A stretch of DNA of 64,000 bases from Escherichia coli (lineage in GTDB: Bacteria > Pseudomonadota > Gammaproteobacteria > Enterobacterales > Enterobacteriaceae), in NCBI RefSeq assembly GCF_013315695.1, contig NZ_CP054353.1. One strand, 5' to 3'. The position numbers and the translations under genes are program-made. Shown here one piece after another: positions 28,788-33,698 of this stretch. The notes beneath the pieces are model-generated. The model did no database searches and was not told where the DNA came from. It saw only the letters and a list, made by a program, of their open reading frames with translations. The first letter of the stretch is position 1; each line of letters begins with the position of its first letter.

Positions 28788-31214
28788 ATGTCCAAAAATG
28801 AACAAATGGTGGGCATCAGCCGCAGAACACTCGTTAAATCTACCGCGATAGGTTCTCTGGCGCTGGCTGCAGGCGGTTTTTCTTTACCGTTCACCCTGCG
28901 CAGTGCAGCGGCAGCGGTACAACAGGCCAGCGAGAAAGTGGTCTGGGGTGCCTGTTCCGTCAACTGTGGTAGCCGCTGTGCACTTCGTCTGCATGTTAAA
29001 GATAATGAAGTGACCTGGGTGGAAACTGACAACACCGGCAACGACGAGTATGGCAATCATCAAGTACGTGCCTGTTTGCGCGGTCGCTCCATCCGTCGGC
29101 GTATTAATCATCCCGATCGCTTGAATTACCCAATGAAACGCGTGGGCAAACGCGGCGAAGGCAAATTCGAACGGATTAGCTGGGATGAAGCCCTGGATAC
29201 TATCGCCAGTAGCCTGAAAAAAACCGTCGAACAATATGGCAATGAGGCTGTATATATTCAGTACTCTTCAGGGATCGTTGGCGGCAATATGACCCGCTCT
29301 TCACCATCAGCCTCGGCGGTCAAACGCCTGATGAACTGCTACGGCGGTTCACTCAATCAGTATGGCTCCTACAGCACCGCGCAAATTTCCTGTGCCATGC
29401 CCTACACCTACGGCAGTAATGATGGCAACAGCACCACGGATATTGAAAACAGCAAGCTGGTCGTGATGTTTGGTAACAACCCGGCAGAAACCCGCATGAG
29501 CGGCGGTGGCATCACTTATCTTCTTGAAAAAGCGCGCGAGAAATCGAACGCAAAAATGATTGTTATCGATCCGCGATATACCGATACGGCTGCTGGTCGT
29601 GAAGACGAATGGCTACCTATTCGCCCGGGCACCGATGCCGCGCTGGTTGCGGGTATTGCCTGGGTATTGATTAACGAAAATCTCGTTGATCAACCTTTTC
29701 TCGATAAATACTGCGTCGGCTATGACGAAAAAACCTTACCCGCAGATGCACCAAAAAATGGTCACTATAAAGCCTATATTCTTGGTGAAGGTGATGATAA
29801 AACAGCGAAAACGCCGCAGTGGGCTTCGCAAATTACCGGTATCCCGGTGGACCGTATCATCAAGCTGGCGCGTGAAATTGGCACAGCAAAACCCGCTTAT
29901 ATCTGCCAGGGCTGGGGACCGCAACGCCAGGCAAACGGCGAGCTGACTGCACGCGCTATTGCGATGTTGCCTATTCTGACGGGCAATGTCGGCATCAGCG
30001 GCGGGAATAGTGGCGCGCGTGAATCGACCTATACCATTACCATAGAACGCCTGCCGGTGCTGGATAATCCGGTCAAAACGTCAATCTCCTGCTTCAGCTG
30101 GACAGATGCTATCGATCATGGCCCGCAAATGACGGCAATCCGCGACGGTGTCCGGGGCAAAGATAAACTGGATGTGCCCATTAAGTTCATCTGGAACTAC
30201 GCGGGAAATACCCTGGTTAATCAGCATTCTGACATCAACAAAACGCATGAAATTCTGCAGGACGAATCGAAATGCGAAATGATTGTGGTCATCGAAAACT
30301 TTATGACCTCATCGGCAAAATATGCCGACATTCTGCTGCCAGACCTGATGACCGTTGAGCAGGAAGATATTATTCCTAACGACTACGCCGGTAACATGGG
30401 ATATCTCATTTTCCTTCAGCCAGTCACCAGCGAAAAATTCGAACGCAAACCGATTTACTGGATCCTGAGTGAAGTCGCGAAACGTCTTGGACCTGACGTC
30501 TATCAAAAGTTCACTGAAGGTCGCACCCAGGAACAATGGTTACAACATCTGTACGCCAAAATGCTTGCCAAAGATCCGGCGTTACCGTCTTACGACGAAC
30601 TGAAAAAAATGGGTATCTATAAGCGTAAAGATCCCAATGGTCATTTTGTCGCCTACAAAGCATTTCGTGACGACCCCGAGGCAAATCCACTTAAAACGCC
30701 TTCCGGTAAGATTGAAATTTATTCCAGCAAGCTGGCGGAAATTGCCCGTACCTGGGAACTGGAAAAAGATGAAGTGATAAGCCCACTGCCGGTTTATGCC
30801 TCAACCTTTGAAGGCTGGGACTCCCCTGAACGTAGTACCTTCCCACTGCAACTGTTTGGTTTCCATTACAAATCCCGTACGCACTCGACCTACGGCAACA
30901 TTGATGTCCTGAAGGCAGCCTGCCGTCAGGAAGTGTGGATCAACCCTATAGATGCACAGAAACGTGGGATTGCCAACGGCGATATGGTGCGGGTGTTTAA
31001 CCATCGTGGCGAAGTTCGGCTACCAGCCAAAGTGACACCACGCATTCTCCCTGGAGTTAGTGCTATGGGCCAGGGAGCCTGGCACGAGGCCAATATGTCT
31101 GGCGATAAAATCGACCACGGCGGCTGTGTGAATACGCTAACCACTCTGCGCCCTTCACCACTGGCGAAGGGAAACCCGCAGCACACTAATCTGGTCGAGA
31201 TCGAAAAAATATAA
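28788..31214 (+). CDS. ynfE: Molybdopterin oxidoreductase catalytic subunit YnfE (DmsA paralog, Tat signal)
   Basis: 808-aa ORF; twin-arginine motif SRRTLVK; Fe-S cysteine cluster [12 protein letters not shown]. Confidence 0.9.
   Translation: [808 protein letters not shown]

Positions 31215-33698: not shown

Follow-up and report, generated by a model that had tools for sequence, protein, structure and literature searches.

The tandem genes ynfE and ynfF, located within a stretch of 64,000 nt from Escherichia coli (contig NZ_CP054353.1, hereafter the window), raise the question of whether they form a long near-repeat, a potential substrate for recombination or assembly collapse as the original prediction had proposed, or are two diverged members of an ordinary operon. 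With a probability of roughly 90%, we consider the region to be an intact, ordinary E. coli ynfEFGH-dmsD operon, whose ynfE and ynfF genes are an ancient tandem duplicate that has diverged too far on the DNA level to act as a repeat. Sequence features, protein families, gene order, and how old and how constrained the duplication is were computed in this study, while the literature provides the evidence on enzyme activity, on binding by DmsD, and on the dependence on FNR.

The two tandem open reading frames (ORFs) of 808 codons were recovered at exactly the predicted coordinates, and the expected single ynfG/ynfH/dmsD set downstream of both catalytic genes was confirmed by matches to TIGR02951, PF04976, and NF008632, respectively:

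28788..31214, + strand: ynfE, catalytic subunit paralogue 1 (808 aa, ATG start; NF041885 1798.8 bits, cut-off 1675)
31215..31271, + strand: ynfE-ynfF spacer of 57 nt (from the sequence)
31272..33698, + strand: ynfF, catalytic subunit paralogue 2 (808-codon ORF, ATG start; NF041884 1773.6, cut-off 1650)
33709..34326, + strand: ynfG, DmsB-type four-cluster Fe-S electron-transfer subunit (TIGR02951 264.8 bits, cut-off 214.1)
34328..35182, + strand: ynfH, DmsC-type membrane anchor and quinol oxidase subunit of 284 aa (PF04976 428.6 bits; annotation of an identical genome)
35225..35839, + strand: dmsD, chaperone performing Tat proofreading of the signal peptides of DmsA, YnfE, and YnfF (NF008632 344.7 bits, cut-off 162; PMC5203670)

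Over 7.5 kb, the locus is 100% identical to the complete E. coli genomes NZ_OZ547117, NZ_CP146670, and NZ_LR898874, in which it is annotated alike. The RefSeq annotation places the ynfF start at the second ATG (31275), yielding 807 aa and thus a small correction to the 808-aa call. The heptamer AGTGAGT closes the spacer immediately before the ynfF ATG and occurs identically before the ATG of ynfE. The scan of the spacer yielded no terminator-like site.

The assignment of both products as probable Tat-dependent, DmsA-like catalytic subunits, also part of the original prediction, is backed by signal motifs, domains, and curated models. Twin-arginine motifs are found at residue 11 of YnfE (SRRTLVK) and residue 16 of YnfF (SRRSLMK), each followed by a hydrophobic stretch, and both proteins contain the Molybdop_Fe4S4 (PF04879), Molybdopterin (PF00384), and Molydop_binding (PF01568) domains. 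Both ORFs belong to TIGR02166, and each scores under the cut-off of the other's specific model (NF041885 for YnfE, NF041884 for YnfF). A pattern search for the Cys cluster with C-x2-C spacing gave no match in either protein; the cluster is visible in their alignment as CxxxCxxxC...C, the real spacing being C-x3-C-x3-C.

Upstream of ynfE, two putative promoter elements were located:

28675..28688, + strand: FNR box TTGATATGGATTAA, one mismatch to TTGATnnnnATCAA (pattern match)
28710..28715, + strand: candidate -10 hexamer TAGACT (read from the sequence, spacing inferred)

The operon is reported to be directly FNR-activated through one site at -40.5 (PMC3688515). Placing the -10 element at TAGACT would centre the FNR box ~40.5 nt upstream of a transcription start near 28722, so that transcription would proceed from an FNR-activated promoter upstream of ynfE. 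The sigma-70 scan upstream of ynfE called no promoter, TAGACT included, as would be expected of a promoter that depends on an activator; the result does not count against such a promoter.

In terms of divergence, the YnfE and YnfF proteins share 568 identities over 801 positions (71%; BLASTP 1229 bits, E = 0), which is far beyond chance, and the predicted long identical peptide runs do exist, spanning 26, 24, 20, 19, 18, and 18 residues. Either protein is only 66.5–67.6% identical to DmsA. On the DNA level, identity amounts to 69.7% and drops to 47% at third codon positions. The dS between the paralogues is saturated at 2.08 with a dN/dS of 0.10, and window alleles compared with K-12 alleles gave a dN/dS of 0.04–0.05. 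Salmonella YnfE and YnfF are likewise 71% identical (PMC5203670), from which it follows that the duplication predates the Escherichia–Salmonella split. As judged from these comparisons, the duplication that gave rise to ynfE and ynfF is ancient, and both genes are subject to purifying selection. Gene conversion between the two genes was considered and rejected, as identity is even along their length (0.61–0.75 per 150 nt) and the F-type sites in the window's ynfE are scattered, forming no mosaic tract.

Whether both copies are maintained for their function is a separate matter, since ynfF (or ynfE) might be a redundant copy heading for loss, the pair persisting only through slow decay. Kinds of decay other than the gene fusions described below, IS insertions among them, were far more common in the set of 5,426 complete E. 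coli genomes. The ynfF gene is a pseudogene in ~10% of these genomes: ~561 carry ynfE/ynfF sequence but lack a 580-nt ynfF piece, most of them being of ST131 type, including EC958. In 147 genomes (2.7%) ynfE is split by an integrative element, and 104 (1.9%) are devoid of any ynfE/ynfF sequence. Strain 536 and at least 44 further genomes share one clean deletion reaching from just after ynfD into ynfH, with dmsD kept. In agreement with these counts, ynfE and ynfF rank among the E. coli metabolic genes with the highest pseudogene frequencies (PMC13322260), and Salmonella YnfF was found to contribute little to selenate reduction (PMC5203670). All of this speaks for redundancy. However, both copies are intact in the window, the pair has been kept since before the Escherichia–Salmonella split, and the low dN/dS values, between paralogues as well as between strains, indicate that intact copies are under strong purifying selection. 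Furthermore, ~85% of the complete genomes are free of the counted lesions, a figure to be read as a rough upper bound with point mutations, frameshifts, and most IS insertions unscored. Taken together, a redundant copy on its way to loss appears unlikely compared with a maintained isoenzyme. Nevertheless, the small role of Salmonella YnfF together with the frequent pseudogenization in E. coli renders a full functional equivalence of YnfE and YnfF doubtful. The ynfEF genes constitute one of the more often damaged respiratory loci of E. coli, and the ynfF pseudogene of ST131 strains such as EC958 is relevant for any study of ynfF performed there.

The ynfEFGH-dmsD locus is a well-known selenate/tellurate reductase operon and nothing new in itself. 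Deletion of ynfEF abolishes selenate reduction in E. coli, where YnfE and YnfF are described as paralogous isoenzymes (PMC12724226), and DmsD binds the signal peptides of DmsA, YnfE, and YnfF (PMC5203670). In the arrangement we propose, YnfE and YnfF would be DmsA-type molybdo-bis(MGD) subunits, whose twin-arginine signal peptides would be proofread by DmsD before export by the Tat system. Each of them is likely exported together with YnfG and docked on the single YnfH anchor; quinol electrons would then pass from YnfH via YnfG to either YnfE or YnfF, at which selenate/tellurate and some S-/N-oxides would be reduced in the periplasm. YnfE and YnfF would presumably serve as alternative catalytic subunits with YnfGH in common. 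A search of the PDB returned no solved structure for any of DmsA, YnfE, and YnfF. That YnfE and YnfF instead work together in one YnfEFGH complex would suit their co-transcription and the term “YnfEFGH selenate reductase” often used in the literature, but selenate is still reduced by a Salmonella strain that lacks ynfF and has YnfE as its only catalytic subunit (PMC5203670), the paralogous DmsABC contains one catalytic subunit, and in many natural strains just one of the two copies is intact. A joint complex is therefore regarded as very improbable compared with the use of alternative subunits.

With the operon defined, the paralogues were compared on the nucleotide level for identical tracts, as had been suggested along with the original prediction. 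The longest tract spans 20 nt, followed by tracts of 17, 17, 15, and 15 nt:

29181..29200, + strand: longest identical tract, 20 nt, TGGGATGAAGCCCTGGATAC, ynfE copy (paralogue comparison)
31677..31696, + strand: the 20-nt identical tract, ynfF copy (paralogue comparison)

Neither 21-mers nor 25-mers common to ynfE and ynfF were detected. Efficient RecA recombination in E. coli usually requires a minimal efficient processing segment of roughly 25–30 bp of uninterrupted identity. As the 20-nt maximum falls below this length and not a single 21-mer is shared, both efficient RecA recombination and assembly collapse are implausible; an assembler working with k >= 21 has nothing to collapse on, and the predicted collapse risk was consequently not borne out.

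The proposed role as a recombination substrate fared somewhat better: considering the 69.7% DNA identity and the 20-nt maximum it mostly failed, but rare fusions do exist. In-register ynfE::ynfF fusions were identified in 10 of the 5,426 complete E. coli genomes, tracing back to two independent events. In each case, precisely 2,484 bp are deleted and what remains is a hybrid of 808 codons, intact and with a clean, in-frame junction; PF04879, PF00384, and PF01568 are present in both hybrids (WP_104457354.1 for the ST399 event and WP_256683566.1 for the K-12 one). The first fusion is found in eight genomes (ECONIH4, 0H15–0H26, CAVP776), in which the hybrid is identical over 8,427 bp. They originate from three separate sources, namely hospital wastewater in the USA, a Canadian meat plant, and a perirectal isolate from Virginia, and seven of the eight are on record as “naturalized” strains of ST399 from wastewater or meat plants. 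The second fusion occurs in two K-12-background genomes from separate assemblies (JCC-EE 7, CP137696); all 762 informative sites of this hybrid agree with MG1655, first with ynfE and then with ynfF. Both crossovers map to short microhomologies, of 10 nt in the ST399-type and 14 nt in the K-12-background fusion:

29478..29494, + strand: 17-nt identical tract (14 nt in K-12 alleles), ynfE copy, crossover of the K-12-background fusion
31962..31978, + strand: the 17-nt tract, ynfF copy, exactly 2,484 nt downstream of the ynfE copy
29934..29943, + strand: 10-nt tract, ynfE copy, AACGGCGAGC in the window and AACGGCGAAC in ST399 alleles, crossover of the ECONIH4/0H15–0H26/CAVP776 fusion
32418..32427, + strand: the 10-nt tract, ynfF copy, 2,484 nt downstream of the ynfE copy

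For the ST399 event, the parental ynfF allele was taken from ECONIH5, whole-locus searches for intact relatives having returned mostly other rearranged loci; since the ST399 ynfE 5' allele was not recovered, the 10-nt crossover tract rests on K-12-like ynfE alleles. For counting fusions, a flank-joining query proved cleaner, whereas megablast extends across the paralogue, so that its identity bands need care. AZ 191, CPE35, FDAARGOS_1285, and E500002 were rejected as fusions, carrying out-of-register or internal deletions. The reciprocal duplication product (ynfF 5' joined to ynfE 3') was not recognized in any genome by a synthetic-chimera search, a screen confounded by the adjoining of the ynfE end and the ynfF start in normal genomes, which are joined into one full-coverage place. 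The candidates 99-3311, H1, and ECONIH5 were rejected as reciprocal chimeras, their loci being IS- or island-disrupted.

The case for ynfE and ynfF as a practical substrate of RecA-type homologous recombination and assembly collapse draws on their arrangement as full-length, direct-orientation paralogues 2,484 nt apart and on the existence of the in-register fusions. Besides the low nucleotide identity and short perfect tracts, however, the observed crossovers lie within 10- and 14-nt tracts and not within long homology, genomes with IS, island, or non-homologous lesions number in the hundreds compared with two independent fusion events, and three complete genomes that were assembled independently match the window at 100% identity. 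Such a role is thus highly improbable; the ynfE/ynfF paralogy does serve as a substrate for deletion, but very rarely and via short instead of long homology. The only kind of paralogue-driven rearrangement seen would accordingly be described as a rare, microhomology-mediated in-register deletion yielding one in-frame hybrid. Although a hybrid gene at tandem paralogues is the classic signature of collapse, the notion that the hybrids are assembly artefacts and not real deletions can practically be dismissed, given the same hybrid in eight complete genomes from separate sources, the second one in two separate assemblies, the clean in-frame junctions, and the lack of common 21-mers on which k-mer or overlap assemblers could collapse.

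The natural ynfE::ynfF hybrids are a minor new observation. It is conceivable, albeit rather speculative, that in-frame hybrid molybdoenzyme subunits arise from the ynfE/ynfF pair recurrently in nature. In this view, the hybrid would be a functional selenate/S-oxide reductase, kept and perhaps even favoured in engineered environments. If true, a retained working hybrid would provide a natural case of hybrid-gene formation, so far known mainly from laboratory evolution. For the window itself, the outcome is that a textbook operon was correctly recognized and that the assembly-collapse warning can be set aside. In addition, the locus serves as a calibration: tandem paralogues of 70% identity are stable as repeats, yet fusable in frame via 10–14-nt microhomologies, and such fusions are frequent enough to surface among a few thousand genomes.

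The locus was also compared with the closest known systems. The E. coli K-12 and Salmonella ynfEFGH-dmsD operons agree with the window in gene content, order, and lengths as well as in the flanking genes, with ynfD lying upstream and clcB downstream. The YnfE and YnfF of the window are 98.9% and 99.5% identical to the K-12 proteins, with dS values of 0.098 (ynfE) and 0.049 (ynfF), indicating an allelic variant without material difference. The E. coli DmsABC system shares the catalytic/Fe-S/anchor design, the Tat signal type, the chaperone DmsD, and TIGR02166. In contrast to the two tandem catalytic genes of ynf, it has only one, both ynf proteins score under the cut-off of the DmsA model NF011566 (1346 and 1316 against 1600), and the reported ynf substrate is selenate/tellurate, not DMSO as for DmsABC. 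Regarding the fusions, E. coli evolution experiments revealed paralogue deletions generating hybrid genes at icd/icdC and manB-cpsG (bioRxiv 10.64898/2026.06.14.732165), a report with zero occurrences of ynfE and no mention of ynf fusions. The outcome is the same as for ynfE::ynfF, i.e., an in-register join into one intact hybrid ORF. Unlike these laboratory hybrids, the ynfE::ynfF fusions are found in natural ST399 isolates as well as in a K-12 line, and they arose between paralogues of 70% identity, at tracts of 10–14 nt.

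The original prediction placed a tandem pair of DmsA-like genes, ynfE and ynfF, of ~808 aa each at 28788-33698 ahead of a single ynfG, ynfH and dmsD set, and both were recovered as 808-codon plus-strand ORFs at exactly these coordinates. The locus comprises the following features:

28675-28688: FNR box with one mismatch, a pattern match upstream of ynfE
28710-28715: TAGACT hexamer, candidate -10, at the position required of a -10 in a class II FNR promoter
28788-31214, plus strand: ynfE (ORF 1), 808 codons in the ORF list
31272-33698, plus strand: ynfF (ORF 2), 808 codons in the ORF list; RefSeq start at the second ATG, 31275, 807 aa
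33709-34326: ynfG, DmsB-type Fe-S subunit (TIGR02951)
ending at 35182: ynfH, DmsC-type anchor (PF04976, 428.6 bits)
35216-35839: dmsD, Tat chaperone DmsD (NF008632)

Gene identities, domains, Tat motifs, operon order and the FNR box were directly observable. ORF 1 scored above the curated NCBIfam cut-off for YnfE (NF041885, 1798.8 vs 1675) and below that for YnfF, ORF 2 above the YnfF cut-off (NF041884, 1773.6 vs 1650) and below that for YnfE, and both missed the cut-off of the DmsA model. Each protein has the three Pfam domains typical of a DMSO-reductase-family subunit, a CxxxCxxxC...C cluster and a twin-arginine motif (SRRTLVK in YnfE, SRRSLMK in YnfF). The RefSeq annotation of an identical genome lists ynfD, ynfE, ynfF, ynfG, ynfH, dmsD and clcB in this order. 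The genes were correctly named in the original prediction. The 5' end of ynfF reads ATGATG. Three complete E. coli chromosomes match the 7.5-kb locus at 100% identity and nearly all others at 95-99%; it is a known operon, ordinary and already described.

Direct FNR activation of ynfEFGH-dmsD from a site at -40.5 was reported in a genome-wide FNR study (PMC3688515). The scan of the 57-nt ynfE-ynfF spacer called no terminator-like site. Since the heptamer AGTGAGT precedes both start codons (28779-28787 and 31263-31271), the ribosome-binding region was probably copied along with the gene in the ancestral duplication. Right behind ynfD lies an inverted repeat (GCCGGATACGACACATCCGGC, 28608-28628), possibly the terminator of ynfD or else a REP-like element; it was not among the sites called by the terminator scan. 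Further upstream, position 1 to about 23,430 corresponds to a Qin-like defective prophage, as judged by the 100%-identical NZ_OZ547117, with dicB, relBE, hokD, cspB/F/I and rrrQ, an IS2 within its exonuclease gene (about 19093-20321) and an integrase adjoining rspB (about 22146-23426).

Regarding function, deletion of ynfEF in E. coli abolished selenate reduction, and YnfE and YnfF were called isoenzymes (PMC12724226). In Salmonella, YnfE provides the main activity, and selenate reduction persists when ynfF is deleted (PMC5203670). DmsD binds the signal peptides of DmsA, YnfE and YnfF (PMC5203670). YnfE and YnfF would act as alternative catalytic subunits with YnfG and YnfH in common. A search for solved structures of DmsA, YnfE or YnfF returned none, the nearest being soluble DMSO and TMAO reductases.

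The two proteins share 568/801 identities by BLASTP (71%, 85% positives, 1229 bits, E = 0), and the long identical peptide runs noted in the original prediction extend to 26, 24, 20, 19, 18 and 18 residues. At the nucleotide level, the codon-based alignment revealed 1678/2409 identical positions (69.7%), with 79%, 83% and 47% identity at codon positions 1, 2 and 3, a saturated Nei-Gojobori dS of 2.08 and a dN/dS of 0.10, the latter reflecting constraint. This low identity and saturated dS, together with the greater distance of either protein to DmsA (66.5-67.6%) and the likewise 71% identical Salmonella pair (PMC5203670), indicate on sequence grounds that the duplication is old. As identity per 150 nt is even (0.61-0.75 apart from the signal-peptide region), no recent conversion tract is visible between the genes. 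Compared with the K-12 alleles, ynfE of the window is E-type, i.e., in the ynfE state, at 721/764 sites separating the paralogues; 24 of the 43 differing sites, an excess, are in the F-type (ynfF) state, and being dispersed through the gene they give no evidence for a conversion tract. Synonymous divergence from K-12 is double in ynfE (dS 0.098) relative to the adjoining ynfF (0.049).

For efficient RecA recombination, two sequences must be perfectly identical over roughly 25-30 bp, and mismatch repair blocks it at such divergence. In the pairwise nucleotide alignment, the longest identical tract is 20 nt, and in any register the genes have one 20-mer and zero 21-mers in common. With tracts this short and the mismatch-repair barrier, efficient RecA recombination between the genes is unlikely. 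Given 69.7% identity and the lack of shared 21-mers, collapse by an assembler is implausible, rendering the concern about a collapse-prone long near-repeat essentially unfounded. The predicted role as a recombination substrate is unlikely for the efficient RecA type and holds for rare fusions through microhomology, found in 10 genomes.

These fusions were detected by searching 5,426 complete E. coli genomes with a synthetic query (ynfE nt 1-1213 joined to ynfF nt 1214-2427), which matched eight records in a single piece (100% coverage, 97.2% identity, sole copy per genome) and two further records at 93.2%. All ten genomes carry a single 2,427-nt ORF between ynfD and ynfG, and informative-site mapping revealed a single clean switch from E-type to F-type. 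Two independent events can be distinguished. The first is carried by ECONIH4, 0H15/18/23/24/25/26 and CAVP776, identical over 8,427 bp (protein WP_104457354.1), with the switch at hybrid nt 1147-1156 in a 10-nt common tract (AACGGCGAAC, with ynfF taken from ECONIH5, an ST399 relative). ECONIH4 and the 0H strains belong to ST399 and are described as "naturalized" strains of wastewater and meat plants (PMC11169474); CAVP776 was isolated perirectally in Virginia. The second, in JCC-EE 7 and CP137696 (WP_256683566.1), agrees with MG1655 ynfE and then ynfF at 762/762 informative sites, switching within a 14-nt tract (AACCCGGCAGAAAC), with MG1655 flanks and just two other differences. Both hybrids are in frame, lack internal stops and keep all three domains.

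In a second survey, the left and right 3-kb flanks were joined as query (≥80% coverage), and only 15 of the 5,426 genomes had an interval short enough to join them: the ten fusions, AZ 191, FDAARGOS_1285, 2EC1 and two ISEc8 cases. The latter three have IS annotations at the locus; AZ 191, FDAARGOS_1285 and CPE35 were rejected as in-register fusions, mapping as out-of-register deletions. In-register fusion via short homology therefore occurs yet is rare (two events, 0.18% of genomes), and RecA-independent slippage between short direct repeats would account for it.

Other lesions at the locus are far commoner. ynfF is a pseudogene in ST131-type strains (S21EC, EC958) through two internal deletions of 580 and 274 bp (equivalent to 31989-32568 and 33343-33616) without obvious junction repeats; the 580-nt piece is missing in 561 genomes among those retaining ynfE/ynfF sequence. 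The 'ynfF' expression measured in EC958 (PMC12096835) consequently comes from a pseudogene. In 147/5,426 genomes, e.g., ETEC1738 and ECONIH5, ynfE is split by a ~9.4-kb element, absent from the window, whose products are an integrase, a KilA-N protein and hypothetical proteins; the ETEC1738 copy also contains an IS66. Insertion at one point, with the 15 bp of ynfE nt 1397-1411 (30184-30198, AGTTCATCTGGAACT) duplicated at the borders of the element, makes ynfE appear to serve as its attachment site. The ynfE/ynfF sequence is wholly missing in 104 of the surveyed genomes. In strain 536, the stretch from just past ynfD into ynfH (~28.6-34.9 kb equivalent) is cleanly deleted, leaving a 312-nt ynfH remnant ORF and dmsD, which is needed by DmsABC; at least 44 other genomes (e.g., F11, ECONIH2, BH100) show the same flank-join pattern. 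STEC O145 and O111 strains show insertions of IS3-family elements and deletions flanked by IS between the genes. O145 99-3311 has one copy of the same IS3-family element in each gene, and its relatives have ynfE 5' - IS - ynfF 3' structures with junctions in common, which look like IS-mediated deletion between the paralogues. These counts agree with a pangenome study in which ynfE and ynfF rank with the metabolic genes most often pseudogenised (PMC13322260).

Our literature search found no description of ynf fusions, and ynfE is not mentioned in the report of the paralogue-deletion hybrids icd/icdC and manB-cpsG from laboratory evolution (bioRxiv 10.64898/2026.06.14.732165). The ynf fusions resemble these hybrids, all of them being products of deletion between paralogues.
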